64,000 nucleotides of DNA from a virus. A model generated the notes under the pieces. The model made no database searches and was not told the origin of the DNA. It saw only the letters and a program-made list of their open reading frames with translations. Positions 24,723 to 51,622 of this stretch are shown piece after piece. Location: the IMG/VR virus record IMGVR_UViG_3300029651_000001, positions 1 to 64,000 of that record; one strand, given 5' to 3'. How positions within the stretch are numbered: the stretch's first letter is position 1; every line of letters starts with the position of its first letter. Both the position numbers and the translations under genes were made by a program.

Positions 24723-24989
24723 TTAAGTACCCGTCCTTAACAGCTCCTCGCTGCGATCGATCACCTCGACCTCGCCTGTGGTCTGTATCCAAACCTTTGC
24801 GCCGCAAGAGAGTGGGTTATCCGGCCGGTAAACGACTCGCGCCGCCTCCTTGCCGTCCTGTCCGTAGATGACCACCTCGTGGCCATAGGCGTTAGTCTTG
24901 CCTTGCTTGACGGTCACCACCGGGAAGCGGAAGCCGTTCCTTGCGTTGGCTTTGATACGATGCTGGTTGACGTGGATGATCGATTTCAT
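24723..24989 (-). CDS. Hypothetical protein (88 aa)
   Basis: ATG 24989 (MKSIIHVNQH) follows the leader motif at 24994. The 3' end contains TTAAGTACCCGTCCTTAA (24723-24740). Confidence 0.6.
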   Translation of the reverse strand: MKSIIHVNQHRIKANARNGFRFPVVTVKQGKTNAYGHEVVIYGQDGKEAARVVYRPDNPLSCGAKVWIQTTGEVEVIDRSEELLRTGT

Positions 24990-25009
24990 AAGGTCTCCAA
25001 AGGGTTGAG

Positions 25010-25501
25010 TTATCTCATGTCCTTGCGATGAGCAAAGCAAGGGTTCAGGCTTGCGTTGTTCGGATATGCTTTGGTTGACTGCCCTGTCTTTAGGCATGTC
25101 CCGTAGCACACCCATTTCCCGTTCTCCTTGCGTTGGAAAAAGCCACAGTCATTACAATCCGCGTCTATCTTCTGGCACTCGTAGGCTTCTTGGGCCTGTC
25201 CAGTCGACTTGCACTCCTTGTGACAAGGAGACTGGAAGGCCCACCAGTATGACGTCGTGGTGTCGAACGTCTTATCCGTGAGTGGTCCATTACAGAACCT
25301 GCACGTTTTGCTCGGACTGAGGTGCTTCAGCAAGAGGTAGGCCCGTAGGTACCGGTCTGGACTTGGGTCTAGTTCGGCTACCTCCAGTCTCTGGCCGGAC
25401 AGAAGCGCCAGCTTCATGTCCTTTTCGGAGATGGGCAAAGGTCCTTCGAAGCCCAGGCTGAGGTGTTTTAGAAGTTGTCTATCTCGTTTGTCATTACTCA
25501 T
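25010..25501 (-). CDS. Cys-rich hypothetical protein (163 aa)
   Basis: ATG 25501 (MSNDKRD). Multiple Cys pairs (CRFCNG, CHKEC, CNDCGF). Confidence 0.55.
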   Translation of the reverse strand: MSNDKRDRQLLKHLSLGFEGPLPISEKDMKLALLSGQRLEVAELDPSPDRYLRAYLLLKHLSPSKTCRFCNGPLTDKTFDTTTSYWWAFQSPCHKECKSTGQAQEAYECQKIDADCNDCGFFQRKENGKWVCYGTCLKTGQSTKAYPNNASLNPCFAHRKDMR

Positions 25502-25646
25502 GGTCTTTCTCAAATACGAACGCCCCGCACTCCGGGCACTCCAGATCGGAGAACTGGTCGCCGGCTTCGTGGCGCAAATGGGCATCTTTTGCGGGGTTGG
25601 GGTCGGTTCCTTCCCAGGCGCAGTTTTGGCAAGCGTAAGTAATCAT
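25494..25646 (-). CDS. Zinc-ribbon-like small protein (50 aa, below the ORF-track cutoff)
   Basis: Hand translation gives MITYACQNCAWEGTDPNPAKDAHLRHEAGDQFSDLECPECGAFVFEKDHE. ATGA coupling to the upstream gene. CxxC...CxxC pattern. Confidence 0.55.
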   Translation of the reverse strand: MITYACQNCAWEGTDPNPAKDAHLRHEAGDQFSDLECPECGAFVFEKDHE

Positions 25647-26152
25647 AAGGCATCCCTTGCCTCGAACTCAGTCCAGGACTTGAACACGCGTCCGCTCAAG
25701 TGAGTCCTCTTGAACCGGTAAACCTCTCCGTGCTGGGACAATCCGTATTGCCTTTTCCGATTGGTGACCTGAAGACCTGTAGGTTTGAGCCTGGGCTTGA
25801 GCTCGACGATGTCACCCTCCTCGAACTTAGTGTTCCGAGCGGCGTGATACCTCCTAACTCTCTCCCGCCACTCCTCGCTCGCCACCGGAACCATGTCGAG
25901 GTAGGAGAGCGGGCAGGTGTAATAGTAGGGGTGCATCGATTCACACATGTCCTTGTAACCCCATCGGCAATGTTCAGGGTGCCTCGACGCCTTACTGAGC
26001 AAGTAGCAGCCGATGAACCTGTCTTTGACTCCTTGTTCTACTGTCCACAAGGTGTTGCCGACTGTGCAGTGGGCGTAGACGGTGGCGCCGTTCCCTTCGA
26101 CGAGGTGTCTGATTAGGTCCTTACGAGTGGGTTCACAGAATAGCCAGCCCAT
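25643..26152 (-). CDS. Hypothetical protein (169 aa)
   Basis: ATG 26152 (MGWLFCEP) lies 2 nt after the upstream stop. Contains WGYKDMCESMHPYYYTCP. Confidence 0.6.
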   Translation of the reverse strand: MGWLFCEPTRKDLIRHLVEGNGATVYAHCTVGNTLWTVEQGVKDRFIGCYLLSKASRHPEHCRWGYKDMCESMHPYYYTCPLSYLDMVPVASEEWRERVRRYHAARNTKFEEGDIVELKPRLKPTGLQVTNRKRQYGLSQHGEVYRFKRTHLSGRVFKSWTEFEARDAL

Positions 26153-26154
26153 AG

Positions 26155-26457
26155 TTATGTTCTCCCCTTGGCTTCTGCCAAAGCTTCTGCCACCATGTCG
26201 GCAAAATAATCGTCCTTGTACTTGGTGTAGAACTCTTCGGATGTCTTGTAACAGCAGCACCCGAGGTAGGCAGTACCGAGTTCCTTGCCATCCATCCAAG
26301 CAGACACCTTGGCGCGGAACCAGGCTAAATCTGTAATCTTCCGGTAGTCCTTTTCAGACCAGCCGCACTCCTTGATGAAGTGGTGGCGCATGGAAGTGTC
26401 TTCAGGCTCGGCCTCGAAACAGATGATGAAGCCATCTCGCTCAAATAGTGGGATCAT
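26155..26457 (-). CDS. Hypothetical protein (100 aa)
   Basis: ATG 26457 (MIPLFERD) follows the leader motif at 26465. Confidence 0.6.
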   Translation of the reverse strand: MIPLFERDGFIICFEAEPEDTSMRHHFIKECGWSEKDYRKITDLAWFRAKVSAWMDGKELGTAYLGCCCYKTSEEFYTKYKDDYFADMVAEALAEAKGRT

Positions 26458-26482
26458 AGGTTTTCTCCAAAGGGTAAATACA

Positions 26483-26503
26483 GGCTCCGTATGCTGCGGA
26501 GCC
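26483..26503 (-). terminator. Intergenic stem-loop, CAGCAUA-loop variant
   Basis: + strand reads GGCTCCG TATGCTG CGGAGCC. Confidence 0.6.
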
Positions 26504-26582
26504 AAGAGTTACTTCCGCCGCCGCAGCCAACGGCGCAGGACTCGGAACAAGGAGAGGTAAAAGTTAAGAATCCAACTGTGCA

Positions 26583-26912
26583 TCAGTCCTCTTCGAAGGC
26601 GGTGTGCCCAATAACCAACGCCGCGGTCGTCCTCAACCCTCGCTCAAGCTCCTCGATCCGATCCAGCAACTTAAGCACGGTGGCAGGGTTGAAGGTGGCG
26701 ATGTGTTTAGCGTTCACTTCCGCCGGCTCAATGTGTACGTGAATAGCCTCCGCGTGCCACGTCTTTCTACCGTGATACAGATACTCCACATCGATCGTCT
26801 GGGTAGGTAGGTCTGCTTCCTCCCCTGCAGGCAGGAGTTCTCCGAGTTTCCATTCACCTTGGTTCGCCGCCTCGGCGATGCGCCGAAGCCTCGCTAAATT
26901 CAATTCAGTCAT
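26583..26912 (-). CDS. Ead/Ea22-like family member (GEW...NPATVLKLLDRIEELE)
   Basis: Contains ANQGEWKLGE and AKHIATFNPATVLKLLDRIEELE. Shares its architecture with paralogs at 28.9-34.5 kb. Confidence 0.55.
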   Translation of the reverse strand: MTELNLARLRRIAEAANQGEWKLGELLPAGEEADLPTQTIDVEYLYHGRKTWHAEAIHVHIEPAEVNAKHIATFNPATVLKLLDRIEELERGLRTTAALVIGHTAFEED

Positions 26913-26956
26913 TCTTTTGCCTCATGTTCTTCGATGGACTCAATCTCGTGCTTTGC

Positions 26957-27121
26957 CTACATTGCCGCACCGTCTGCACTGCGCCTAGACGTTAGATCAA
27001 CACGAACCTGGTCTCCTTTCTCGATCCGCCACCCGTATGGGAACGGCTCCATCGCCTCCAAGTAAGTGATCTTTACCAACCAGCCCTTATGGCTGAACTC
27101 CTGTGCAACCATATACGTCAT
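26957..27121 (-). CDS. Hypothetical protein (54 aa)
   Basis: ATG 27121 (MTYMVAQEF) lies 17 nt after the upstream stop. The track's N-terminal extension is Arg/Pro-rich off-frame-like sequence. Confidence 0.45.
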   Translation of the reverse strand: MTYMVAQEFSHKGWLVKITYLEAMEPFPYGWRIEKGDQVRVDLTSRRSADGAAM

Positions 27122-27138
27122 CCCATTATCCAATTCGC

Positions 27139-27447
27139 TCACGGCTTGTCTCCCCATTCCAAGCAGTCGTCGATGTTCGCCCGCAAGTCGTAGCCGTTCT
27201 CCCGCTCGAAGTTCCTGGCGAGCCAAACGTCGCCCAGGCGGGAGGCGCCGGTCACCCGGTAACGCTCGCCCTGGTAGGTGCAGAAGAGCTTGAACTGCTT
27301 CATCCAAGGTCTGAAGTACGACTGGAACACCGCGTTCAGCCGCATGTGAAACAGAACGAAACGGGCGTAGTTCTCCTCGTGGGAGTAGTTGTCGATCCAG
27401 TCGTCGACGTGGGTCGGACTAGTAGATAAGGCGGATTCCGTTGTCAT
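27139..27447 (-). CDS. Hypothetical protein (102 aa)
   Basis: ATG 27447. Overlaps the upstream gene by 29 nt. Confidence 0.55.
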   Translation of the reverse strand: MTTESALSTSPTHVDDWIDNYSHEENYARFVLFHMRLNAVFQSYFRPWMKQFKLFCTYQGERYRVTGASRLGDVWLARNFERENGYDLRANIDDCLEWGDKP

Positions 27448-27727: not shown

Positions 27728-27731
27728 ACCT

Positions 27732-28221: not shown

Positions 28222-28234
28222 TACTACTTCACTT

Positions 28235-29551: not shown

Positions 29552-29934
29552 TTCTCTGCCTCCAGTTTGGATAACGCATCCCGCACCCTGCGAATGAGAG
29601 GCTGAGCTTCTCTGATCGGAAGTCGATCCCCAATGTGGGCAGACGAGAACTCGACCCAAGCTTGCATTGCCTCGATGGCTTCGATCAGATTCGGCATGCT
29701 GTTGTGGGCGGTGGTGATGAATTCGGCGTCACCGCGGTGAAACTCGAATAGGTCATGGTTTGTAGTTACGTACCTGTCCTTTACTTGTATGCTAGTGAAT
29801 GGGCGTGCCTCGTACTCAGCACGGTTCTCTTCACTCAACTCCCAGATTGGCCCGTCGAAATCCTCGTGTTGCCTGCACGGTTTCCACTCCCCCGGCGTTG
29901 CCGCGGCGAGCGCGGCTTTCAGTTTCTCTAGCAT
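29536..29934 (-). CDS. TPGEW...PNLIEAIE family paralog (132 aa)
   Basis: MLEKLKAALAAATPGEW...HNSMPNLIEAIEAM. Confidence 0.65.
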   Translation of the reverse strand: MLEKLKAALAAATPGEWKPCRQHEDFDGPIWELSEENRAEYEARPFTSIQVKDRYVTTNHDLFEFHRGDAEFITTAHNSMPNLIEAIEAMQAWVEFSSAHIGDRLPIREAQPLIRRVRDALSKLEAEKCSTD

Positions 29935-33634: not shown

Positions 33635-33841
33635 TTATGCAAACACTCGATAAGTGCAGGTCCGGTTATCCACCAGCGTCTTGCAAAGGACGTGTCCTTT
33701 AGACAAGTAGGTGGTGACTCCCAGGCCGTCCGGGTTCGTTCCCTCGTGCTGGTACTCGCCGGTCCATCCCTTGGAACGGAGCCACGCGGCGAAGTCGTGG
33801 TCGCCTTTGAAGTGGGTTTCTTTGAGGTTAGGAGGGATCAT
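33635..33841 (-). CDS. Hypothetical protein (68 aa)
   Basis: ATG 33841 with AAGGAGA 7 nt upstream (the track start at 33847 is a TTG). Contains the perfect palindrome AAAGGACGTGTCCTTT at 33685-33700. Confidence 0.5.
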   Translation of the reverse strand: MIPPNLKETHFKGDHDFAAWLRSKGWTGEYQHEGTNPDGLGVTTYLSKGHVLCKTLVDNRTCTYRVFA

Positions 33842-36736: not shown

Positions 36737-36894
36737 GCTGCCTCCTCGATGGACTTGTCTAAGGTCAGGTCCTTAAGCTTCTCTTCCCTCTCGGCCTGCT
36801 GTCGGCGGAGGCGTTCCTCCGGCGTAAGGTCGTCGGCCAAGTGGCGGGCGCAATCAAGGACTACGGGGTCAGGAAGTTCAGGAAGTTCCGGCAT
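36733..36894 (-). CDS. Small ORF (53 aa, below the track cutoff)
   Basis: Hand translation gives MPELPELPDPVVLDCARHLADDLTPEERLRRQQAEREEKLKDLTLDKSIEEAA. TTGGAGGGTGAAG RBS. Coupled downstream. Confidence 0.5.
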   Translation of the reverse strand: MPELPELPDPVVLDCARHLADDLTPEERLRRQQAEREEKLKDLTLDKSIEEAA

Positions 36895-37251: not shown

Positions 37252-37509
37252 TCATTGAGCGGGACAGGGTTCCGGGTTCCAAAGGACGTAGTACACGCTC
37301 ACCACGTCACGTAATCCTCGCAACTTGCGAACGGCTTCTTCGATGTCGTCCTTGGTGTGGTGGGGTTCCCAGAAAAGGGTGAAGTCGGCGCCGGCCCGAC
37401 TGGCTAACTTAGAGGTGAAGTAAACGCCGTTGACACACTCGTGATTCCTGACTGCCCAGCAGTATTCGCGCCGGTAGAAGGCTTCGTCGAAGGTTTTAAT
37501 TTCCCGCAT
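37252..37509 (-). CDS. Hypothetical protein (85 aa)
   Basis: ATG 37509 (MREIKTF) with a GAGGT RBS. Confidence 0.55.
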   Translation of the reverse strand: MREIKTFDEAFYRREYCWAVRNHECVNGVYFTSKLASRAGADFTLFWEPHHTKDDIEEAVRKLRGLRDVVSVYYVLWNPEPCPAQ

Positions 37510-37873
37510 GATTGACCTCGAGTGCTGTCTCCCAAGCCTGGAAGTCGTTGGCGAAAGATTCACTGGCGTCCATGGAAACGTAATCGTCGCCCTGCATGCC
37601 CATCTCCGAGTAGCCTAGCCAACCTTTGCAAGGTATTCCTTGCTCTTCGAAGTGCTGTAGGACTTCTTTGAGGAATTCTGGATCGGTGTGGATGAGGCCG
37701 TCGGTGGCTGTGTCCCAGGTGGTTGGGTCAAAGAACAGGCGCAGCTCGGCGGCGATGAACTCCCCGTCCTCTTTGTACACGTCGAGTTCCAGGCCCGTGA
37801 TGTGAACGGTTGTTTGCTTGGTGGACCAGTAGCCGGTTCCGTCAGTACGGAACCAAAGGTTGGTTGCGATCAT
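37496..37873 (-). CDS. Hypothetical protein (125 aa)
   Basis: ATG 37873 follows the leader motif at 37881. Confidence 0.6.
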   Translation of the reverse strand: MIATNLWFRTDGTGYWSTKQTTVHITGLELDVYKEDGEFIAAELRLFFDPTTWDTATDGLIHTDPEFLKEVLQHFEEQGIPCKGWLGYSEMGMQGDDYVSMDASESFANDFQAWETALEVNHAGN

Positions 37874-37891
37874 GGGTTGACCTCCAAAGGG

Positions 37892-37907
37892 TTAAGTACA
37901 TGTCCTT
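37892..37907 (-). promoter_or_regulatory. Oriented TTAAGGAC-NN-GTACTTAA-type site fused to the leader motif
   Basis: + strand reads TTAAGTACATGTCCTT, immediately 5' (in transcript sense) of AACCCTTTGGAGG. Confidence 0.5.
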
Positions 37908-37929
37908 GGCGCCGCGTGCTGGCGGCGCC
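37908..37929 (-). terminator. Intergenic stem-loop, CAGCAC-loop class
   Basis: + strand reads GGCGCCGC GTGCTG GCGGCGCC (8-bp stem). Confidence 0.65.
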
Positions 37930-37933
37930 CAAC

Positions 37934-39049: not shown

Positions 39050-39098
39050 GCAATTTCTCCAAAGGGTTAGACTGCTTGTGCTGGGCGCCGCTAGCCGA

Positions 39099-39398: not shown

Positions 39399-39418
39399 AT
39401 TGTCTCCAAAGGGTTGAA

Positions 39419-39437
39419 GGCGCCTGTGCTGGGCGCC
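39419..39437 (-). terminator. Intergenic stem-loop, conserved CAGCACA-loop class
   Basis: + strand reads GGCGCC TGTGCTG GGCGCC. Confidence 0.6.
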
Positions 39438-39440
39438 GGA

Positions 39441-42866: not shown

Positions 42867-43169
42867 TCATGAGTGAAAGCTCCACTCGCAGGGCTTAAGC
42901 TCATCTTCGCCCGGCAGGCTGCCGCGGTAGACGGCGCCCAAGGTGAATCGGTGGACGGATTGGGTGCTGGTGTAACCGGCGACGAACTCCATCTGCCGTT
43001 TGTTGAAGTAAATGGAGACCCTGTCGTAGGCGTCCGGGCAGAAAGTGGCAAGCCGGCCGATCGCCTGCTGCATCTTGAGTATGCCGTCGGCGCCGTACAG
43101 CCTGTAGAGTTCGGCCTCAGTGTTCTGGAGGTCGGTGGGGTCGACGTGGAATTCAATCGTTCTCGACAT
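42867..43169 (-). CDS. Hypothetical protein (100 aa)
   Basis: ATG 43169 (MSRTIEFH) follows the leader motif at 43175. Confidence 0.6.
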   Translation of the reverse strand: MSRTIEFHVDPTDLQNTEAELYRLYGADGILKMQQAIGRLATFCPDAYDRVSIYFNKRQMEFVAGYTSTQSVHRFTLGAVYRGSLPGEDELKPCEWSFHS

Positions 43170-43186: not shown

Positions 43187-43204
43187 TTAAGTACAGGTCC
43201 TTAA
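43187..43204 (-). promoter_or_regulatory. Oriented TTAAGGAC-NN-GTACTTAA site fused to the leader motif
   Basis: + strand reads TTAAGTAC AG GTCCTTAA. In transcript sense it is TTAAGGACCTGTACTTAAACCCTTTGGAGC. Confidence 0.55.
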
Positions 43205-43983: not shown

Positions 43984-44551
43984 CCAGCACCTCCGTGCAA
44001 TGCATTGCAAGGACTTCATAGGCTACCTGGCTTAGCTCATGCTCCATGCTCTCTTTGCTTTCGAAAATACCAGTCGTGAACACATATCCCATCTTGTCCC
44101 GATACAAGGCGTAGTGAACCTTCCTGATCTTCGGTTTCATGTAAAGAAAAGGTTCACCGAGACAGCCGTAGCCTTGCGCAGAGAGTGCGTGAACTCCCCC
44201 GGTATTGAGGTTAATCGTCACTACGCGGAATGCTGGACGCGCTTCCGTAACATAGGCAACGAATTTATGCTCGCTGCCGTCAGTGTCCACGGCCAGCTGG
44301 CCGGCCTTGAAAGCCTCCAAATTAAAAGGAATTCTGTTCACGTTTTCAGTCTCCAAAGGGTTGCGCAGGATTTTTAATTCCTCGGTAGGTCCGTATAACG
44401 CCATGGCCGGCTCGCCACCATTACCGTAATCCGTATACACCTTGAGCAGTCCATCTTGGGTTCTCACCACCCGGACGACCCGCTCGTTGTGTTTGGGGCC
44501 TCGATGACCAATCCAATCACCAGGCATGAGGTCCTTAGCCTCAATCTTCAT
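43973..44551 (-). CDS. Hypothetical protein (192 aa)
   Basis: ATG 44551 follows the leader motif at 44559. An in-frame internal leader motif plus GTG lies at 44350-44362. Confidence 0.6.
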   Translation of the reverse strand: MKIEAKDLMPGDWIGHRGPKHNERVVRVVRTQDGLLKVYTDYGNGGEPAMALYGPTEELKILRNPLETENVNRIPFNLEAFKAGQLAVDTDGSEHKFVAYVTEARPAFRVVTINLNTGGVHALSAQGYGCLGEPFLYMKPKIRKVHYALYRDKMGYVFTTGIFESKESMEHELSQVAYEVLAMHCTEVLDEK

Positions 44552-45182
44552 TTTTAGCCCTCCAAAGGGTAATCAGGCCTGCAAGGATGAGGGTTGTAGT
44601 GGACGGCTCCGGCAGTTCACGGGTCTCTCTGTCCGGCGCCGCCTCCCTCACCTGTAGCCGGGTGATGTTCCCGCACACCCGAGGTACGGCGATGATGTAC
44701 TCGCCCAGCCAGTACACCTCGGCTCGCTCGTAATGCAAGTCCTTGAAATTGGTTCGGGTTCCGTAACACATGCTGTTGCCGAACGCCATCGAATAGGTGG
44801 GAACATACCAATGGTGGGTGTCTCTGACGCCTGCATTGCTGAACACCGCCTCGTCATCGGAATCCTTACGCTTGATCCGGTCGGTCAAAACCTTGGCGGA
44901 GTCCGTGTCTACGCCGAGGGTCCGCAAGGCGGAGTAGATATCCCCCGTGAATGGGTGGCTGCCAGGATTGCCCCATTTGCAGCCGTAGCGGAGTTGAAGC
45001 GGCCTGTATTCCGGCTCCCTGATCGGTTCTACCAAATCGGCTGCGTTGCCCAGATCCGTAACACCGGTGGAGTCCGGAGTTGAGGGGGCGATTGTGACGG
45101 TCGTGATCGCCGCCGACAGCGGCAATGAAAAACACAAGCTCCCGACGATGAACCCTCGCCAGAATCTCGACGGTCTTTTCAT
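44541..45182 (-). CDS. Secreted protein with a PEP-CTERM-like sorting signal (213 aa)
   Basis: N-terminal signal-like FIVGSLCFSLPLSAA. The C-terminus LPEPSTTTLILAGLITLWRAKNED combines PEP, a hydrophobic helix and basic residues. Leader motif at 45189. Confidence 0.65.
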   Translation of the reverse strand: MKRPSRFWRGFIVGSLCFSLPLSAAITTVTIAPSTPDSTGVTDLGNAADLVEPIREPEYRPLQLRYGCKWGNPGSHPFTGDIYSALRTLGVDTDSAKVLTDRIKRKDSDDEAVFSNAGVRDTHHWYVPTYSMAFGNSMCYGTRTNFKDLHYERAEVYWLGEYIIAVPRVCGNITRLQVREAAPDRETRELPEPSTTTLILAGLITLWRAKNED

Positions 45183-45199
45183 AGGAGGTCTCCAAAGGG

Positions 45200-45216
45200 T
45201 AAGTACATGTCCTTAA
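45200..45216 (-). promoter_or_regulatory. Oriented TTAAGGAC-NN-GTACTTA site fused to the leader motif
   Basis: + strand reads TAAGTACATGTCCTTAA. It overlaps the inverted repeat ATGTCCTT (45207-45214) / AAGGACAT (45223-45230). Confidence 0.55.
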
Positions 45217-45227
45217 GGATTGAAGGA

Positions 45228-45256: not shown

Positions 45257-45261
45257 GCTTG

Positions 45262-45498
45262 CCGGATAAGCTCCGGCGGGCTCTTGTTGCTGGACTTGTA
45301 CGGCTTACAGCTCCCGTTTGGTTGTACCTTGATTTCCCCCTAATGCTTGCGGGCTGCAGGGTTTGTGCATCTTGGGTGCGCGAATTCCCATGTCCGGACG
45401 CAGTCCCAAGTAGCAATCAAAGCATTACCATCCAACCAATAATGGCTAGGTCGCAGCTCCCCGGATCGTGTCTGTTACCGGATAAGCTCCGGCGGGCT
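45262..45498. repeat. 21-bp direct repeat CCGGATAAGCTCCGGCGGGCT (45262-45282 and 45478-45498)
   Basis: Exact 21-mer copies 216 bp apart, downstream of the tag frame. Each contains the 5-bp hairpin CCGGA/TCCGG. Similarity extends about 8 nt further on one side. Confidence 0.85.
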
Positions 45499-45563
45499 GT
45501 TGTCGCCAACGACTGCGATTCGGTTGCCCGGCTTCTGTTCTCAAGCGCCGGGCAGGCTCGGCT

Positions 45564-45605
45564 TTAGGCGGCTGCCTTCAGCGGGGCATACGTATCATCG
45601 TTTGC
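45564..45605 (-). other. tmRNA tag reading frame: ANDDTYAPLKAAA followed by a stop
   Basis: GCA AAC GAT GAT ACG TAT GCC CCG CTG AAG GCA GCC GCC TAA. The GCA resume codon, AND start and AAA end are typical of proteolysis tags. Confidence 0.75.
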
Positions 45606-45882
45606 CTTTGTGGTTTTGCGCGGTTAACGCCCGTCGCCTTTCGTGCTGCCATCTCTGCTTTGCTGCCCCGTCGAAACCTGGCTGGCCCATCAGAAGAAGG
45701 CTGTTAGAGCGTGCAGTAGGAGTCGAACCTTCTTTTGGTGGACCAGGCCGGAATTGAACCGGCGTCCGAGACAACTCCACTTCGATGGAGTTACAGCAAT
45801 TCGGCGCCCAATCTATTCGGCAGACTCCCACTGGACTAGGAGCGCATACTGCCGGCATCCCTACAGGGCGGCCAGGTCTGCC

Positions 45883-46033: not shown

Positions 46034-46057
46034 ATGGGGTCAGTTCACAAGGTTTGG

Positions 46058-46297
46058 CTAGCCGTGTGAGCTACACCACCGTTTCGATACGAAATATCCA
46101 ATCTGGTGGCTGACTACCCGGTAAACACCTTGCCCAAACCAGCCCTGACTGGGGACACCGTGCTTCTTCCGGCCGTAGATGTCGGCCGCCGGCACTCCGA
46201 AGACCCACACGGCCATGGGCGTCAGGTCGCCTCCGCAAGCGGGGGCCAGGGCTAGGGCGATCGAGAGGTAAAGGGTTAAGGTGATTGTTGATGTCAT
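46058..46297 (-). CDS. Small secreted or lipoprotein-like protein (79 aa)
   Basis: ATG 46297 (MTSTITLTLYLSIALALAPAC) follows the leader motif at 46302. Confidence 0.55.
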   Translation of the reverse strand: MTSTITLTLYLSIALALAPACGGDLTPMAVWVFGVPAADIYGRKKHGVPSQGWFGQGVYRVVSHQIGYFVSKRWCSSHG

Positions 46298-46353
46298 ATG
46301 ATCTCCAAAGGGTTGAGGTTGTACATCCTTGTCGGCCGTCCTTGGCCGCATCC

Positions 46354-46371
46354 TTAAGTACTTGTCCTTAA
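46354..46371 (-). promoter_or_regulatory. Oriented TTAAGGAC-NN-GTACTTAA site
   Basis: + strand reads TTAAGTAC TT GTCCTTAA. The nearby hairpin CGGCC GTCCTT GGCCG (46333-46348) carries GTCCTT in its loop. Confidence 0.5.
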
Positions 46372-46381
46372 ACTTTCCAGG

Positions 46382-46687: not shown

Positions 46688-46737
46688 CTTTACCTCTCCA
46701 AAGGTAGGACATAAACGTCCATAAGGACAAGGGATTG

Positions 46738-46752
46738 AGGACGTGTACTTAA
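46738..46752. promoter_or_regulatory. AGGAC-GT-GTACTTAA site in the opposite orientation to the other copies
   Basis: + strand reads AGGACGTGTACTTAA. The region 46703-46752 also holds GGACATAAACGTCC and AAGGACAAGG. Confidence 0.4.
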
Positions 46753-46767
46753 TCAATGAATCCTGAA

Positions 46768-46956
46768 TTAAACGTCATGTTCGGAGAGCCGCTGATATTC
46801 GAGGTCGAACCATTTCCACCAAATCGATCTCTCGGGCTCTGTTTTATATGGGTTTTCGTCGGCGCTTTGCTCTTGACCGGGACATTGATAATACCGACGA
46901 GCTGCTTGAACAGCTTCAAGGGCGATTTTGTTTTCGTTCTGCTTATCGATGCTCAT
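46768..46956 (-). CDS. Hypothetical protein (62 aa)
   Basis: ATG 46956. Trp-rich WWKWFDLEY. Confidence 0.5.
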   Translation of the reverse strand: MSIDKQNENKIALEAVQAARRYYQCPGQEQSADENPYKTEPERSIWWKWFDLEYQRLSEHDV

Positions 46957-46968
46957 TATTGTGCCCCG

Positions 46969-47151
46969 TTAGCGTGTCCTTCGGGGTGGCCGTTCGTCGA
47001 TCTCAATACCTCGCCGTGCTGCTTCCAGCAATGCCAGCTGTGCGTAAGCCTTGCGGCCGGCGGCGGATTCCTTCTCGTAAACGCCGCGGACTTGGGCATC
47101 CGTACAGGTTTTGACGTAAAGCGTGAACTCGAGTCGATCTCGTTTGGTCAT
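46969..47151 (-). CDS. Hypothetical protein (60 aa)
   Basis: ATG 47151 (MTKRDRLEF) with AAGGTG 6 nt upstream. The track start at 47160 is a GTG without an RBS. Confidence 0.5.
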   Translation of the reverse strand: MTKRDRLEFTLYVKTCTDAQVRGVYEKESAAGRKAYAQLALLEAARRGIEIDERPPRRTR

Positions 47152-47183
47152 TGATTTCACCTTGATGTGTGGGTTGACGTTGT

Positions 47184-47858
47184 TCAGGGTTCCTCTGCAA
47201 GAAGGCTCAATCGCTCCGCTTCGATCTCTTCGTCGGTCAGGTCGACGGGCTGGATCTTGCTGGCGAGGGCGGACAAGTCTTCCGTATGTTCCGTGAAGTT
47301 CTGCGGCGGCTGGCCTGCTCGCAAGGTGGCAAGGTAAGGGATTATGAAATGGTCCAGCGTGGATTTCATGATCTCTTTGGCCGCGTTTTGTAAGTGTATG
47401 GTTAACTTTTCGGCAATGATGCTTTCGGCTTCCGTGACTAGACTCCTCAGCAGTGTCGCTTCCGCTGTCTCTCGAACCTCAAAGACGGGCATTCCCGCCC
47501 GACCAAAGACCACCCATTCGTCCGACAGGTCCAAACCAAACCGAGTACGCCGGTTGTTTCGGCTGTAAATCGACGTAATCGACAGGTTGTACTTCTGGAC
47601 CCACTCGTCAATAGGCCAAGTAATACCTCGAATAGTGAACGTCAGCACGGACTTACGAGTCCGGCGATCCCTAGGCTGCCCGTAGTCCGTATGACAGCGA
47701 CAGCGGAACCGTCCTTGGTTCCACAAGGATGTGGAAATCGAGCGTAATCCCTCACAGGAATTACACATAGCAAGCCAGTGTTTCCCTCTTCTTCCCTCGG
47801 GTCCGTGAGATGTCCCAATGACTTTGTACCCATTCTTAGTGTCGCCGATCTTTGGCAT
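47184..47858 (-). CDS. Putative DNA-binding early protein (224 aa)
   Basis: First gene downstream of the AT-rich region. The N-terminal G.YKVIG...WLAMCNSCEG...RCRCH pattern resembles Zn-finger DNA-binding modules of phage endonuclease-associated proteins. The function is not established. Confidence 0.55.
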   Translation of the reverse strand: MPKIGDTKNGYKVIGTSHGPEGRRGKHWLAMCNSCEGLRSISTSLWNQGRFRCRCHTDYGQPRDRRTRKSVLTFTIRGITWPIDEWVQKYNLSITSIYSRNNRRTRFGLDLSDEWVVFGRAGMPVFEVRETAEATLLRSLVTEAESIIAEKLTIHLQNAAKEIMKSTLDHFIIPYLATLRAGQPPQNFTEHTEDLSALASKIQPVDLTDEEIEAERLSLLAEEP

Positions 47859-48424
47859 ACCATCACCTGTAAAAACTAAATAAGGCAGGAGTTCTACGCA
47901 AAATGGCGTAGATTTAGTTTGATATTGTTAGTTTAAGTTTGATTTTGCGTCCGCGCAACAAAATCATTCTGCCATAACCCGTATGTACAAGAGAGTCGGG
48001 TATGATTCTGTCCATGCCAATCTGTGTGTACTTGCAACAGAAACGCTCGTTCAATAACTGAGATCATAGCCGGGTTTATTTGTCAATACATGCGCGCAAA
48101 AAGCATGTATAACTTATGTACAACGCAGTTGGCCAGAAATTTTAGATTTTTGGGCGGCGATGTACAAAAAGTATAGCTACGGGGTCGTTAGTATTGCTGC
48201 CAGCGTTTTGACGCGGTGTTGAGGAAAATCAATGGTATACCTGGGAGACTTTGACGCTGTGCAGCGTAAAGCAAGGTTTTAAGTCTTTTTCGATATTAGA
48301 AAATGCTAATGCGCTTCCTAAAACAACTTTCGCTCGCAGCAGCGAACCAGCAGGCGCGATTTACGCCCAATGAATTTTTCGACTTTGCTCCTCAAAATAA
48401 AAAAACTAACAATACTTCAATAAT
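47859..48424. other. AT-rich gene-free region (candidate replication origin and/or early promoter hub)
   Basis: No ORF of 60 aa or more on either strand. ATGTACAA at 47983, 48116 and 48160. Hairpins CTACGC/GCGTAG (47894-47911) and ATACATGC/GCATGTAT (48086-48110). Direct repeats TTAGTTTGAT / TTAAGTTTGAT at 47914-47944. ACGCTG TG CAGCGT at 48254-48267. Confidence 0.6.
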
Positions 48425-48691: not shown

Positions 48692-48858
48692 AATTGCCTC
48701 TCTTGCTGCCGGGCCACCAACTCCGCCTTGACTTCCGACATTTCCGCGGCCAATAAATCCCTCTCCACGCCTGGCGTCATCTTTGACAGCTGCCGTACCA
48801 ACATCGACAGCGTCACCGTCAACACCTTCGTATCCTGACAAAGCCCCTCATTACTCAT
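48673..48858 (-). CDS. Possible small protein (61 aa)
   Basis: ATG 48858 in an ATGA overlap with the upstream stop. The 3' end overlaps the next start by 19 nt. Confidence 0.4.
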   Translation of the reverse strand: MSNEGLCQDTKVLTVTLSMLVRQLSKMTPGVERDLLAAEMSEVKAELVARQQERQLCVGMK

Positions 48859-49067
48859 GCGAATAACCTCCCGACAGCGTTGTCTACGTCCTTGCGAGCT
48901 GCCAGCTCCCGCTTCAAGATCCGTATGGCTAGATTACAATCTAGCCTTACATTACCCGGATTCAAACGATCTCTGAGGATCTCCAGTTCGAGCAGACGTG
49001 CTCGGATTTGTTGCTCACTTGCTGTGTCGGCGAAGCGGGTGACATTCTTGATAAATTCTTCAGGCAT
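48855..49067 (-). CDS. Small helical protein (70 aa), paralog of 49265..49474
   Basis: ATG 49067 (MPEEFIKNV) follows the leader motif at 49074. Shares MP..F...A..SEE.I.A.L..L.IL....AI..LKKELA.R with its neighbour. Confidence 0.6.
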   Translation of the reverse strand: MPEEFIKNVTRFADTASEQQIRARLLELEILRDRLNPGNVRLDCNLAIRILKRELAARKDVDNAVGRLFA

Positions 49068-49097
49068 GACACATCTCCAAAGGGTAATGACAACCTC

Positions 49098-49113
49098 AAG
49101 GACAGCCGTCCTT
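49098..49113. promoter_or_regulatory. Palindrome AAGGAC-N4-GTCCTT
   Basis: AAGGAC AGCC GTCCTT, between the leader motif and the terminator at 49122-49146. Confidence 0.55.
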
Positions 49114-49121
49114 AAGGCATG

Positions 49122-49146
49122 AAAAAAGCCGGCGATCAGCCGGCTT
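49122..49146 (-). terminator. Rho-independent terminator
   Basis: Transcript sense reads AAGCCGGC UGAUC GCCGGCUU followed by UUUUC. Confidence 0.75.
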
Positions 49147-49154
49147 GCATCCAT

Positions 49155-49173
49155 ACAGCGTCAGCGACGCTGT
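49155..49173. promoter_or_regulatory. ACAGCGTC palindrome (copy 1)
   Basis: ACAGCGTC AGC GACGCTGT. Confidence 0.55.
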
Positions 49174-49175
49174 GC

Positions 49176-49191
49176 AATACACATGTGTATT
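49176..49191. promoter_or_regulatory. Perfect 16-bp palindrome AATACACATGTGTATT
   Basis: Read directly from the sequence. It is unique in this window and intergenic. Confidence 0.5.
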
Positions 49192-49232
49192 CGGTTTGCA
49201 GTTTTACGTGCCCCAAACCGGAAAAGACACGC

Positions 49233-49253
49233 TTAAGGACAACTGTCCCTAAG
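49233..49253. promoter_or_regulatory. Palindrome TTAAGGAC-N4-GTCCCTAAGG
   Basis: TTAAGGAC AACT GTCCCTAAGG. Confidence 0.55.
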
Positions 49254-49258
49254 GTGTT

Positions 49259-49277
49259 ACAGCGTCACTGACGCTGT
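49259..49277. promoter_or_regulatory. ACAGCGTCA palindrome (copy 2)
   Basis: ACAGCGTCA C TGACGCTGT. It overlaps the stop codon of 49265..49474. Confidence 0.55.
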
Positions 49278-49474
49278 TCATCCTTACGGTCGGCCGCGTA
49301 GCGGCTAGCCAATTCCTTCTTTAACACTTCGACGGCGTGCTGCGCTGCCGCACGCGTACCGTCGTTCTCGCCGTGCTCGGCGAGAATGGCCAAAGCCACC
49401 AATTGAGCGAGGATGGTTTCCTCGCTTGCCTTGGAGGCAAGGAGGTCCACCCATTGGCAGAAATGTGTGGGCAT
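49265..49474 (-). CDS. Small helical protein (69 aa), paralog of 48855..49067
   Basis: ATG 49474 (MPTHFCQWV) follows CCTTGGAGAAACC. Confidence 0.6.
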   Translation of the reverse strand: MPTHFCQWVDLLASKASEETILAQLVALAILAEHGENDGTRAAAQHAVEVLKKELASRYAADRKDEQRQ

Positions 49475-49508
49475 TTCAGGTTTCTCCAAGGACAGTATTC
49501 TTATGACT

Positions 49509-49528
49509 GACGCTGTCAAGACAGCGTC
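49509..49528. promoter_or_regulatory. ACAGCGTC palindrome (copy 3, arms in the inverted order)
   Basis: GACGCTGTC AA GACAGCGTC. Confidence 0.55.
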
Positions 49529-49543
49529 GATGGGTTCGCATCC

Positions 49544-49563
49544 TTAAGGACGGCTGTCCTTAA
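49544..49563. promoter_or_regulatory. Palindrome TTAAGGAC-N4-GTCCTTAA
   Basis: TTAAGGAC GGCT GTCCTTAA. It overlaps the stop codon of 49560..49808. Confidence 0.55.
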
Positions 49564-49808
49564 TGAGCGACGGCTCCCCCGCAATAGCCGCAGTCGCCGT
49601 GGCGTGTGCGGTCCCCGCCGTCGGGGCACTCACACCGGCGGGGCATAGGGGCAGGCAGCATCTCCCAAGTCACCCACTCCGCCCCTTGCGGGGCGTTTTC
49701 GAGTGTGTAACGAGCAGCATCCTTGCCGGTCAGTTCCCCGTCGTGCTGAACGAGGAATGATCCTTGGTCGCAAAAGGCATCCCAGCCCCAGTAGACTCGG
49801 TACAACAT
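49560..49808 (-). CDS. Hypothetical protein (82 aa)
   Basis: ATG 49808 (MLYRVYWGW) follows the leader motif at 49815. C-terminal Cys cluster CECPDGG...CGYCGG. Confidence 0.55.
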   Translation of the reverse strand: MLYRVYWGWDAFCDQGSFLVQHDGELTGKDAARYTLENAPQGAEWVTWEMLPAPMPRRCECPDGGDRTRHGDCGYCGGAVAH

Positions 49809-49828
49809 AGGGATTCTCCAAAGGTAGG

Positions 49829-49859
49829 ACAGCGTCAGCATTCATACGGCTGACGCTGT
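49829..49859. promoter_or_regulatory. ACAGCGTCAGC long hairpin (copy 4)
   Basis: ACAGCGTCAGC attcatacg GCTGACGCTGT (11-bp arms). Confidence 0.55.
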
Positions 49860-49864
49860 AGGGC

Positions 49865-49895
49865 TAAAAGGCCCCGAGTACAGGCGTACTCGGGG
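49865..49895 (-). terminator. Stem-loop terminator downstream of 49904..50197
   Basis: + strand reads CCCCGAGTAC AGGC GTACTCGGGG (10-bp stem). In transcript sense it is followed by CCUUUUAG. Confidence 0.55.
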
Positions 49896-49903
49896 AGCGG
49901 GAA

Positions 49904-50197
49904 CTAGTCCCGCATGTCGAAGATGTGTAGGGCTTTCGCCTCGAACTGAGGCGGAGCCCCTTCCGGGGCTCGGTTGGCGTTCTCGAAGACGCCAACCATG
50001 AATGAGGAGGACAGCCGCATAGCAGCGGCCGGATGGACTACGACGACGCCCTCGAAGGCGCCGCGCTCGTAAACCCACGATGGGCTTACGGTGAATGCGT
50101 CGGCGTCGCCGACGCCGACCAGCTCGATCCCTTGCTCTGCGGCAAGGGATATCTGTTCGTGGGTGGGAGTGTGACGGCTGATAAATGCAAATCTCAT
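49904..50197 (-). CDS. Hypothetical protein (97 aa)
   Basis: ATG 50197 (MRFAFISRH) with a GGAGAT RBS. Confidence 0.55.
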   Translation of the reverse strand: MRFAFISRHTPTHEQISLAAEQGIELVGVGDADAFTVSPSWVYERGAFEGVVVVHPAAAMRLSSSFMVGVFENANRAPEGAPPQFEAKALHIFDMRD

Positions 50198-50277
50198 TGT
50201 ATGGATCTCCGATGAAAGTACAGCGCCCACGTTTACCACATTGCCGCCCTGGGCGCGTAGGGCGGCAAGCTTGCCGA

Positions 50278-50340
50278 CTACCCTACGGGCGGGTAGTCAG
50301 CGTCGGTAACTTCTGTGACGTCTAAGAACTCGACGATCAT
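50278..50340 (-). CDS. Micro-ORF (20 aa) behind a leader-like motif
   Basis: CCCCTGGAGAACCGCC ATG. Hand translation gives MIVEFLDVTEVTDADYPPVG. Preceded by ACAGCGTCA palindrome copy 5. Could be a leader peptide or not translated. Confidence 0.3.
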   Translation of the reverse strand: MIVEFLDVTEVTDADYPPVG

Positions 50341-50365
50341 GGCGGTTCTCCAGGGGTTGAGGGAA

Positions 50366-50384
50366 ACAGCGTCAATGACGCTGT
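50366..50384. promoter_or_regulatory. ACAGCGTCA palindrome (copy 5)
   Basis: ACAGCGTCA A TGACGCTGT. Confidence 0.55.
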
Positions 50385-50435
50385 CCCGGTCGAAGAAAGT
50401 AGGCACTAATTCCTTGTGCCGAGTGTGGGGTGTCC

Positions 50436-50756
50436 TTAGAATATACGGGTGACACCTTTGGCTTTGGGCGTCTCGCCCTGCCAAAAGACGACCTTGAGCC
50501 GCGGATAGTGCTGATCGCGGTACTTGATCGCGGTCTGAAACGGCGTGTTTTTATCGAATTCAATCCGAACGTCGCCGAATTCATCCTGAAGCGTTAAGGA
50601 CCTGTACTTAAGCCAGCGTGTCTTTGCCGCGAGGTCATCCAATTCCGAGCCAGTGAATCCCTGGCCCAGGATCGGGCGAATCCGGCCGCGGCTGTCCACA
50701 CGTTCGCCAAACGCACGGCGGCGCCCATGGTGGGAATGGGGGGAATCTTCGTGCAT
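50436..50756 (-). CDS. Hypothetical protein (106 aa)
   Basis: ATG 50756 (MHEDSPHSHHG) with TGGAG 6 nt upstream. Confidence 0.55.
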   Translation of the reverse strand: MHEDSPHSHHGRRRAFGERVDSRGRIRPILGQGFTGSELDDLAAKTRWLKYRSLTLQDEFGDVRIEFDKNTPFQTAIKYRDQHYPRLKVVFWQGETPKAKGVTRIF

Positions 50757-50775
50757 GGTTGACTCCATTTGAGTG

Positions 50776-50815
50776 CTAAGGACATGTCCCTAGCGGGTTA
50801 GGGACATGTCCTTAA
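50776..50815. promoter_or_regulatory. Tandem pair of GGGAC/GGAC-AT-GTCC palindromes
   Basis: CTAAGGACATGTCCCTAG (50776-50793), then cggg, then TTAGGGACATGTCCTTAA (50798-50815). The two sites are reverse complements of each other. Confidence 0.6.
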
Positions 50816-50836
50816 CAGCGCCGTCCTTGGCGCTGT
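50815..50836. promoter_or_regulatory. ACAGCGCC hairpin with a GTCCTT loop (copy 6, variant)
   Basis: ACAGCGCC GTCCTT GGCGCTGT, just downstream of the stop of 50842..51546. Confidence 0.5.
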
Positions 50837-50841
50837 CCAGG

Positions 50842-51546
50842 TTATGCGCGGCGACGTCTCGGCTGAGTTGCCTTTTCCAGTTCAGCCACTAGAGTGGCGT
50901 TCATTGCCTTCAGGTTTTCGATTTCCTGATAAGCTGCAATCAGCTCTTCAACCATTTTGGCTTTGTCGCTATCGAGTGCCGCAACCTGATCACGAAGTTG
51001 CCTGTTTTCCTTAAGCACTTCCTGTATTTTGGCATTGGCGCTGTCGAGCCGTTCCTTCGCTGACTTTTCCCGCTCTTCCGGGTTAGGTTGACTTGCCCCA
51101 ATGGCGGCCGCTTCTGCTGTCTGTGCAGGTGTTTCGTTCGCTTCAGGTGCAGGCAACCGCTTTGCACGTCCAGCGACAACACCCGCTTTACCTTCGCCAC
51201 TGATACCGAAGGTTTTACCTTCGGGCAGTGACAAGGTGAACTGTCCACGTTTCCACCATTGCAAGACGCGTTCACGGACACGCCTAAGCGCTTCGGGTGA
51301 GTTGCGCTCACTGTCTACGATCGCCTGCAGCACAGTGATCTTTTCTTCGTCCGTGCTGCGGGCACGGACAGCTGCAAGCGCTTTGCCTTCGTAGCTAGCT
51401 GCTTTCTGGTACGCAGCAACAGCGAAGTCTTTCGCCTCATCGACTGTCAATGCTTGCAAGTCGTCAAAGCTGGCTTTTTCCAAGTCAACGGCCAGAATGA
51501 GTTCGCCAGAAACAGCGCCAGTGTTTAAGTCTTTGTTTTCGCTCAT
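50842..51546 (-). CDS. Coiled-coil hypothetical protein (234 aa), first leftward gene
   Basis: ATG 51546 with a GGAGATAAAACG RBS. The C-terminal third is a heptad-like K/E/L-rich region ending RRRRA. Confidence 0.6.
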   Translation of the reverse strand: MSENKDLNTGAVSGELILAVDLEKASFDDLQALTVDEAKDFAVAAYQKAASYEGKALAAVRARSTDEEKITVLQAIVDSERNSPEALRRVRERVLQWWKRGQFTLSLPEGKTFGISGEGKAGVVAGRAKRLPAPEANETPAQTAEAAAIGASQPNPEEREKSAKERLDSANAKIQEVLKENRQLRDQVAALDSDKAKMVEELIAAYQEIENLKAMNATLVAELEKATQPRRRRA

Positions 51547-51565
51547 CGTTTTATCTCCGAAAGTG

Positions 51566-51622
51566 TTAAGTACATGTCCCTAAGCGGGACTCGTTAAGTA
51601 CACGTCCTTAAGGACGCTGTCC
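51566..51622 (-). promoter_or_regulatory. Operator/promoter cluster at the divergent switch
   Basis: + strand has TTAAGTACATGTCCCTAAG (51566-51584), TTAAGTACACGTCCTTAA (51594-51611), and an overlapping AAGGACGCTGTCC (51610-51622). Confidence 0.6.

Follow-up and report, generated by a model that had tools for sequence, protein, structure and literature searches.

A family of AAGGAC near-palindromes, candidate dispersed operators, in the early arm of an uncultivated temperate phage

The window analyzed here, a stretch of 64,000 nucleotides (positions 1 to 64,000 of IMG/VR record IMGVR_UViG_3300029651_000001), carries ca. 20 copies of an 18-base near-palindrome, TTAAGGAC-NN-GTACTTAA and its variants, located mostly in short gaps between early genes. 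By an exact-protein look-up, the window was placed within a 93,085-bp metagenomic contig (ENA ERZ27257335 k141_10347; window coordinate is equal to contig coordinate minus 3288), and near-identical copies of the window were found in many other samples. No close relative of the 42-52.5 kb region was found among GenBank phages by megablast, and the best match of the large terminase (TerL), the protein of Vibrio phage SHOU24, is 34% identical at most. The leftward arm of the genome extends from 51546 to the left end of the window, and contains small ORFans followed by genes for DNA ligase, primase, helicase, DNA polymerase I, dUTPase, SbcCD, and ribonucleotide reductase. The rightward arm, which starts at 51840, contains a lambda-like head module (GpA-type terminase, portal, S49 protease), followed by a tail module that includes an 1824-amino-acid (aa) tape-measure protein. 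The phage is siphovirus-like, and its early proteins are almost all ORFans. Genes for a tyrosine integrase and tRNA-Met, together with an AlpA-like open reading frame (ORF), are located at the left end of the contig, which indicates that the phage is temperate, or that the contig is a prophage. The phage also encodes a transfer-messenger RNA (tmRNA), whose match to the beta-proteobacterial model suggests a beta-proteobacterial host; the tag peptide predicted by ARAGORN is ANDDTYAPLKAAA.

The near-palindrome consists of two inverted copies of a half-site, TTA(A/G)G(G/T)AC, located 2 bp or, less often, 4 bp apart. A search for inverted pairs, A[AG]G[GT]AC ... GT[AC]C[CT]T, with every spacer from 0 to 15, returned 13 copies with spacer 2 (0.04 expected), three copies with spacer 4 (0.01 expected), and none at any other spacer in this range. 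The 18-mer with at most two mismatches was found in 18 strand-hits (0.02 expected), and 21 sites were obtained when at most one mismatch was allowed in the 12 core positions (ca. 0.4 expected; 0-2 in simulated sequences). All sites are confined to the leftward arm; no sites were found in 22 kb of the structural (late) arm, or in 3.3 kb to the left of the window. Although 87% of the leftward arm is coding and only 13% is non-coding, 12-13 of the 21 sites are intergenic (p=2e-6 to 2e-7). Thirteen of the 21 are located within the promoter-proximal 9.7 kb, between 42 and 51.7 kb (p=1.6e-5), in agreement with an initial annotation of the window, which had noted a concentration of sites in the early region; every coordinate listed there holds a site, intragenic copies included. 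We conclude that the sites constitute a real, well-defined, and non-random family of cis-elements.

Since both halves of the site are conserved, and since reversed copies (50594, 46735, and 20392) and fully symmetric copies (50776-50815 and 33686) exist, the recognized unit is a dyad, as for a DNA-binding dimer. Such dyad symmetry fits the initial proposal that the palindromes are operators for a dimeric regulator. Mixed sites, which combine a GGAC half with a GTAC half, are somewhat more frequent than expected (11 of 15, p=0.03), and GTAC/GTAC sites are absent from the family. A link of GTAC to restriction-modification was considered and rejected, as GTAC is not depleted (0.96 of expectation). 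Asymmetric GGAC...GTAC copies were initially thought to be always oriented in the same way relative to transcription. This was too strong a statement: the ratio of forward to reversed copies is 7:1 in intergenic regions (p=0.07), and 8:3 overall (p=0.23). The rule is weakened by copies at 50594-50611 (plus strand), 20392-20409 (plus strand), 29766-29783 (minus strand), and 5062-5075, which had been missed.

The sites are listed in Table 1 together with other features of the region. As noted initially, two sites, S1 and S2, are located at the divergent junction (51566-51611). S1 is identical in all strain variants, and 23 nt separate the end of S2 from the ATG of gene 50842-51546, the first in the leftward direction. 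Further into the arm, a hairpin with AAGGAC in its loop abuts the tandem pair S3/S4, and a second hairpin of this kind is found near 46333-46348. An intrinsic terminator (49126-49146) flanks the palindrome at 49096-49115 on one side, and the ribosome-binding site of gene 48855-49067 flanks it on the other. A plus-strand ORF at 46756-47154 was considered as a target of the reversed site S7, and was rejected because its coding score is negative. S12 is positioned 41 nt before the ATG of gene 24428-24685. The copy at 5060-5077 may reflect coding sequence rather than a working site, since a relative (L168) also has a copy within its SbcC gene.

Table 1. Positions of sites, candidate regulators, and other elements in the window and in related sequences
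Feature	Position	Strand	Sequence	Remarks
S1	51594-51611	-	TTAAGGACGTGTACTTAA	Perfect; start of leftward arm; preceded by GGACAGCGTCC; GTCCTTAAGGAC overlaps
S2	51566-51583	-	TTAGGGACATGTACTTAA	One mismatch; 28 bp centre-to-centre from S1
S3	50798-50815		TTAAGGACATGTCCCTAA	Symmetric; first of tandem pair; S3-S4 centres 22 bp apart
S4	50776-50793		TAGGGACATGTCCTTAG	Symmetric; mirror image of S3; ca. 20 nt before ATG of gene 50436-50756
Hairpin	50814-50837	-	ACAGCGCC-AAGGAC-GGCGCTGT	Abuts S3; half-site in loop
S5	50594-50611	+		Perfect 18-mer, reversed; inside gene 50436-50756
4-nt-spacer palindrome	49544-49563 (core 49546-49561)		TTAAGGAC-AGCC-GTCCTTAA	Overlaps stop codon of gene 49560-49808
4-nt-spacer palindrome	49233-49253 (core 49235-49250)		CTTAGGGAC-AGTT-GTCCTTAAG	One mismatch; just past stop codon of gene 49265-49474
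4-nt-spacer palindrome	49096-49115 (core 49098-49113)		TTAAGGAC-GGCT-GTCCTTGA
S7	46735-46752	+	TTGAGGACGTGTACTTAA	One mismatch; intergenic, reversed relative to leftward transcription; extra AGGAC/GTCC copies alongside
S6	46354-46371	-		Perfect 18-mer; 60 nt before ATG of gene 46058-46297
S8	45199-45216	-	TTAAGGACATGTACTTAC	One mismatch; fused to leader of gene 44541-45182; downstream of tmRNA gene
S9	43187-43204	-		Perfect 18-mer; fused to leader of gene 42867-43169
S10	37892-37909	-	CCAAGGACATGTACTTAA	Two mismatches; directly after CAGCAC-loop hairpin; fused to leader of gene 37496-37873
S12	24723-24740	-		Perfect 18-mer; covers last codons and stop codon of gene 24723-25115
Intragenic copy	33685-33700 (core 33686-33699)		AAAGGACGTGTCCTTT	Symmetric
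Intragenic copy	36759-36777 (core 36761-36774)		AAGGTCAGGTCCTT (core)	Degenerate; one mismatch
Intragenic copy	29766-29783	-	TAAAGGACAGGTACGTAA	Degenerate
Intragenic copy	20392-20409	+	GAAAGGACTTGTACTTAA	In DNA ligase gene; reversed
Intragenic copy	5060-5077 (core 5062-5075)		AAGGACACGTCCTT	In SbcC-like gene
Gene	50436-50756	-		106-aa ORFan; tandem sites directly upstream, reversed perfect site inside; absent from L037
Candidate regulator gene	51840-52214	+		124-aa ORFan; AP2-like N-terminus, helix-turn-helix-like C-terminus, both judged by eye
Candidate regulator gene	47184-47858	-		224-aa ORFan; Cys-rich N-terminus, helix-turn-helix-like middle, long C-terminal helix (low-confidence model)
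Crp/Fnr-family protein	6956-7660	-		Recognition helix CSREMTTY; syntenic in relative L168
HU/IHF-like DNA-binding protein	22561-22842	-		Bac_DNA_binding, E=8e-24; middle region
tmRNA gene	45498-45853	-		Rfam beta-proteobacterial tmRNA, 119 bits; permuted tmRNA, 124 bits
65-aa sigma-70 region-4-like protein, AlpA-like ORF, 369-aa tyrosine integrase, tRNA-Met (CAT)	L170 14693-16613			At contig end, left of window
Dyads of relatives	L044 248-260, 734-746, 808-822, 1532-1544; L042 688-700		CTAACTCCAAC-N1/N3-GTTGGAGTTAG
Hairpin gaps	ca. 1440-1479, 13013-13074, 18836-18938, 19939-20112, 21197-21233, 24123-24182, 26458-26582, 37874-37933, 39050-39098, 39399-39440	-		CAGCA(C/T)(A) loop
Second palindrome family	49150-49290, 49480-49530, 49820-49860, 50360-50390; L037 51-100	-	ACAGCGTC-N2-9-GACGCTGT

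In variants 99% identical to the window (L059 and others), the segment 50757-51380 is replaced: identity of the first gene's product falls to 59%, and the variants have an additional 41-aa gene. Within the replaced segment, the block GACAGCGCC-AAGGA(C/A)-GGCGCTG-TTAAGGACATGTCCCTAA-N4-TAGGGACATGTCCTTA is almost invariant and the 22-bp spacing is the same, with both flanks scrambled. The only within-site polymorphism across the variants is found in the spacer of the palindrome at 49544-49563; this amounts to one variable position per 223 bp of sites versus ca. 2.5 expected, a comparison that has little power among variants 99% identical. Two more distant sequences were found through TerL, L037 (81% terminase identity) and L036 (a 36-kb IMG/VR contig, 89% terminase identity), and neither carries the sites. 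In L037, AAGGAC sites are absent from the 1.5 kb of early arm available, and AGGAC inverted repeats are found after its first gene. L044 and L042 have a dyad family of their own, CTAACTCCAAC-N1/N3-GTTGGAGTTAG, in the intergenic gaps of the equivalent arm, again with two spacings 2 bp apart. In L044, one dyad is located on each side of an intrinsic terminator, and one is 35 nt before a gene start. In L049, one copy of GTTACCGGTAAC is present next to a ribosome-binding site. Lineage-specific dyads in the equivalent arm of distant relatives are as expected of immunity-specific operators. As a separate observation, positions 5465-7470 of L036 match window positions 1440-2613 joined directly to 54550 onward, so that ca. 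52 kb of early and replication genes are missing; L036 could have arisen by deletion or by chimeric assembly, or could be a satellite.

The exact motif occurs at chance level in IMG/VR (35 single hits). It also occurs at chance level in 185,579 bacterial and archaeal genomes, except for a repeat element in one Oscillospiraceae metagenome-assembled genome (MAG); there is thus no sign of a host regulon. The MAG, Lab288P1bin2 (L079-L137), contains at least 13 copies of this element, whose core, TTGTTAAGGAC(CA/TG)GTCCTTAACAA, has the same palindrome inside. Since the organism is unrelated, the likeness is probably a coincidence. Two early proteins compared with IMG/VR gave no matches.

We consider that there is about an even chance that the sites are dispersed operators or roadblock sites for a phage-encoded regulator that silences or times early transcription. 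The temperate lifestyle of the phage makes a repressor-operator interpretation more natural. A single phage-encoded sequence-specific regulator, probably dimeric or two-domain, would bind the sites as double-stranded DNA. Access to the early arm would be governed by two pairs, S1/S2 at the junction and the tandem S3/S4, with occupied junction sites occluding initiation, and single intergenic sites would block elongating RNA polymerases that escape or start internally. Occupied sites would thereby keep the early arm silent, or shut it off. The sites abut leaders of genes because leaders are almost the sole non-coding DNA available in the arm.

Several points weigh against this interpretation. 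Protein binding, repression, and the identity of the binder are what we infer from the sequence, and the sites are thus candidate operators. No classical repressor (cI/Cro-type helix-turn-helix, S24 peptidase) was identified by Pfam, PHROGs, or NCBIfam in the window or at the left end of the contig. Likewise, ORFs of at least 45 aa in the 18-51.6 kb region, and genes of the left end, gave no match to a repressor family in profile libraries, which a divergent homologue could escape. No convincing sigma-70 promoter overlapping the sites, S1/S2 included, was found in a scan, which leaves promoter occlusion at the junction as a proposal. A rigid dimer could hardly accommodate both spacings, which differ by 2 bp. 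The late arm is devoid of sites, unlike the case of L5 stoperators, and the 7:1 orientation bias, which would argue for a polar roadblock, is statistically insecure. Comparative depth is poor: the close variants are 99% identical, and just one moderately related early region (1.5 kb of L037) is available. Finally, part of the family may function in RNA, either instead of or in addition to DNA, given that S3 mirrors S4 and that the palindromes with 4-nt spacers fold well.

A purely RNA-level explanation, which we consider unlikely, is that the 4-nt palindromes and the S3-S4 pair function as transcript hairpins (in processing or stabilization, or as an attenuator or a translational operator), while the 2-nt copies are decayed or unrelated relatives. 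The three 4-nt palindromes indeed fold as RNA (-10.5 to -14.5 kcal/mol, z of -4.3 to -5.2), and S3 together with S4 forms a 16-bp RNA stem beside a 9-bp hairpin (-45.6 kcal/mol, z of -7), in a mirror arrangement that is needless for independent operators and is kept in the mosaic variant. In relatives, two spacer lengths are tolerated, as they would be for loops. AAGGAC is found in the loops of two further hairpins, and UAAGGA is complementary to the 3' end of 16S rRNA. However, the commonest class (2-nt spacer, GGAC/GTAC) forms no hairpin. Seven asymmetric sites of this class folded as RNA no better than shuffled sequences (-1.5 to -3.6 kcal/mol; z of -2.3 to +0.8, i.e., about 0), because a 2-nt loop and a G-A mismatch preclude hairpin formation; they must therefore act as duplex DNA. 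This class shares its exact half-site and flanks with the other classes. Further, inverted protein half-sites always fold as RNA as a by-product, the stem sequence itself is conserved and not only the pairing, no compensatory changes were seen, and reversed copies would yield a different RNA. No Rfam family matched at the sites.

For the oriented sites, the initial annotation favored a different function, that of a phage-specific promoter or of a promoter with an embedded operator, and treated the site and the sequence that follows it as a composite of about 29 nt ending in GGAGA. The 3' part of this composite, CCCTTTGGAGA, turned out to be a general ribosome-binding leader, TTAAC-CCTTTGGAG-A, with the start codon 5-8 nt later. 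It precedes 32 genes of the leftward arm (minus strand, between 1456 and 51563), and is also found at two positions of the rightward arm (52444 and 56388, plus strand). The 18-mer, which shares its terminal TTAA with the leader, is present at four of the 32 leftward leaders and missing from the other 28. The site thus merely abuts the leader, and the composite is not a unit. In itself, the leader, (C)TTAAC-CCTTTGGAG-A, is conserved well past the Shine-Dalgarno match.

In its remaining form, the promoter explanation states that the oriented 18-mer, with or without CCCTTTGGAGA, is read by a phage-encoded or phage-modified RNA polymerase that starts at the 3' edge of the 18-mer and produces leaders of 20-23 nt. 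We consider this quite unlikely. Seven of the eight intergenic asymmetric copies do point along the downstream gene, and four copies are at a fixed distance of 20-23 nt from the ATG. The leftward arm has no good sigma-70 promoter in the scan, and one 4-nt site follows a strong terminator and precedes the next ribosome-binding site, a position at which efficient termination would make a promoter necessary. A 65-aa sigma-70 region-4-like protein is encoded near the integrase gene. On the other hand, the conserved part of the site has dyad symmetry and is found in reversed orientation, in fully symmetric form, and within genes as well, and the statistics of orientation given above are weak. No phage RNA polymerase gene was found in ca. 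77 of the 93 kb (the window, 3.3 kb to the left, and the next 9.5 kb to the right). Moreover, with 20-23 nt between the leader-fused sites and the ATG, neither a sigma-70 -10/-35 pair nor an activator site at -41 or -61 for the downstream gene could be accommodated.

Returning to the operator interpretation, candidates for the binder can be considered. When essentially all ORFs were compared with profiles, the only regulators identified were a Crp-like protein, an HU-like protein, and the sigma-70 region-4-like peptide. Genes adjoining the sites code for ORFans without Pfam, PHROG, NCBIfam, or PDB match. By its arrangement, the unit formed by gene 51840-52214 appears to be the most repressor-like candidate. 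It is divergent from the site-bearing arm, has its own terminator (52328-52350), and is preceded by a sigma-70-like promoter, TTGCCA-17-TACAAT (51805-51833), which ends 6 nt before the ATG, implying a leaderless start. In L037, the unit is conserved as a whole with a different putative recognition helix, and the early arm available is without sites. The labels given initially to this product ("AP2-like") and to the 47184-47858 product as candidate binders were not confirmed by any profile or structure tool: Pfam, NCBIfam, and PDB searches lend no support to the AP2-like/helix-turn-helix-like reading of 51840-52214, and AlphaFold2 single-sequence models of the two proteins were of low confidence (predicted local distance difference test, pLDDT, of 54 and 48, respectively), and Foldseek hits were meaningless. 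Two homologues of the AP2-like protein were found among 1.84 billion representative proteins, and an alignment searched against metagenome contigs recovered only the contig of L037 itself. For the 106-aa protein (50436-50756) and the AP2-like protein, no homologues were found beyond near-identical copies and, for the latter, L037. The ORFans at 50436-51546, which are flanked by five sites, and the 224-aa ORFan at 47184-47858 are possible binders as well. Upstream of the latter gene, there is an AT-rich (ca. 40% G+C) non-coding gap of 560 bp (47859-48424) in an otherwise tightly packed arm; an origin, a cluster of promoters, or inserted foreign DNA could account for it.

The Crp/Fnr-like protein (6956-7660), also listed initially as a candidate binder, was correctly assigned to its family: it matches the cNMP_binding and HTH_Crp_2 profiles and the NCBIfam CRP model, and its best PDB matches are CLP, Vfr, and CRP. 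It is a poor candidate for the AAGGAC sites, since its recognition helix keeps the Arg-Glu pair of CRP (CSREMTTY versus CSRETVGR), and since CRP-type boxes are present upstream of its own gene and in the gap between the TerL and portal genes. Near-canonical TGTGA-N6-TCACA boxes (one mismatch) are located at 7752-7767, upstream of the Crp-like gene, and at 56428-56443 and 56460-56475 in the TerL-portal gap; in total, four boxes were found versus 1.56 expected, and three of the four are intergenic. The boxes at 7752, 56428, and 56460 may be recognized by the Crp-like protein of the phage, or by a host protein (CRP, Vfr, or Clp). The AAGGAC half-sites differ from TGTGA at three of five positions in either register, and the Crp-like protein, judged by its recognition helix and by these boxes, probably reads canonical CRP-type boxes.

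That the sites are the regulon of this protein, acting as an activator or a repressor, we consider very unlikely. It is the only profile-recognized sequence-specific transcription factor in the window, and its gene is conserved and syntenic in the phage group. In its core geometry, GA-N6-TC, the 4-nt class matches FNR/CRP boxes, and, owing to the TT-AA-GG doublets, both spacings would place A and G at the two offsets contacted by CRP residues 180 and 181. Against this, in addition to the retained Arg-Glu pair and the CRP boxes elsewhere in the window, 44 kb separate the gene from the site cluster, its codon usage is neutral, it lacks the leader, and the location of the leader-fused sites is incompatible with class I or class II activation. 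In addition, a 12.7-kb locus of L168, a replication-side stretch that contains the orthologue, holds only the SbcC intragenic copy, as does the corresponding region here. We would rank 51840-52214 first among the inferred binders, 47184-47858 or the ORFans 50436-51546 second, and the Crp-like protein third, well behind.

It is highly improbable that the sites serve another DNA transaction (nicking of a specific strand, known from T5 and phage tf; hot-spots of recombination at module boundaries; or binding of host factors): the strand bias of asymmetric copies, the position of the tandem pair inside a recombinant mosaic segment, and the presence of the palindrome TTAAGGAC-NN-GTCCTTAA as the core of the repeated element of the unrelated Oscillospiraceae MAG would fit, but the strong intergenic and early-arm bias is unexpected of nick sites, the mosaic boundaries (50757 and 51380) are away from the sites, that MAG alone among bacterial genomes exceeds chance copies, and no nickase or homing-endonuclease domain was detected near the sites.

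The window contains other repeated elements. More than ten G+C-rich hairpins with the loop CAGCA(C/T)(A) are found in minus-strand gaps, most of them just upstream of the leader, and only some are then followed by a T-run. Conservation of the loop suggests a recognized RNA or DNA hairpin. A second palindrome family, ACAGCGTC-N2-9-GACGCTGT, occupies the first 2.5 kb of the early arm; two of its copies share ACAGCGTCAGyCrTAwGAATrCTG, and, unlike the AAGGAC sites, the family is conserved in L037. A 135-bp tandem repeat (2.8 copies, 98% matches) is present at L170 13162-13539 (window ca. 1-228 and past the left edge), between the ribonucleotide reductase gene and the integrase-proximal genes.

Should the AAGGAC sites prove to be operators, they would define the circuit that controls immunity or early genes in an uncultivated lineage of 93-kb temperate phages, and would provide a direct handle for finding the regulator. 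If they are only conventional operators, their description amounts to a routine annotation of regulatory sites. A more specific proposal, which we consider rather unlikely, is that of stoperator-like silencing outside actinobacteriophages, in which the 51840-52214 ORFan, as a lineage-restricted regulator of two modules, would read a pseudo-palindrome with a fixed GGAC/GTAC asymmetry, and thereby impose a polar block, at ca. 20 intergenic sites along an early arm of ca. 50 kb in a temperate phage with a probable beta-proteobacterial host. If this holds, a mechanism documented mainly in mycobacteriophages would be extended to a phage of proteobacteria, in the form of dispersed roadblocks that may be polar.

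The sites can be compared with several known systems. Like T7-type promoters, they are conserved, ca. 20 nt long, and located upstream of genes, and the GGAGA at the end of the composite adds a superficial likeness; unlike them, the motif is a dyad, GGAGA belongs to the ribosome-binding leader, and no phage RNA polymerase was found in the part of the contig covered. Lambdoid OL/OR operators of cI and Cro are also pseudo-palindromes of 17-18 bp, with adjacent copies at the divergent junction of a self-contained regulator gene and an early arm. More generally, dyad-symmetric sites of 14-18 bp are found in lambda, P22, and 434, and the pairs S1/S2 (28 bp) and S3/S4 (22 bp) are likewise adjacent; the predicted leaderless start of the candidate regulator 51840-52214 resembles that of lambda cI transcribed from PRM. 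However, lambdoid operators form two clusters that overlap mapped promoters, whereas most of the sites described here are dispersed over 27 kb and overlap no promoter in the scan, and no cI/Cro-type protein was found.

The c repressor of phiC31 is oligomeric and binds many conserved inverted repeats of ca. 17 bp in the early region, which are intergenic and near promoters or terminators, and which, like L5 sites, block polymerases. Many conserved inverted repeats scattered through intergenic parts of the early region are thus a common feature, while the sequence and the host differ, and the repressor is known for phiC31, versus candidates only here. We know of no counterpart in phiC31 of the consistent G/T asymmetry, or of the 2-nt versus 4-nt spacings.

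The L5 (cluster A, gp71) system is that of a temperate siphovirus with ca. 20 or more copies of a short site, located mostly in short intergenic gaps upstream of genes, as is the case here. L5 stoperators are numerous, intergenic, and oriented with transcription, and the bound repressor blocks initiation at the early promoter and elongation elsewhere (PMC9283540). The proposed block is the same, and a preferred orientation relative to transcription may be shared as well (here 7:1 among intergenic copies, p=0.07). The differences are that L5 sites are 13 bp long, asymmetric, and bound by a monomer with a helix-turn-helix and a "stirrup", rather than being 18-bp pseudo-palindromes with two spacings; that the early arm contains all the sites found here, whereas 22 kb of late genes contain none; that the host is probably a proteobacterium; and that no gp71-like protein was found here with profile libraries. 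Most likely, the arrangement is of a known kind, and the sequence is new.

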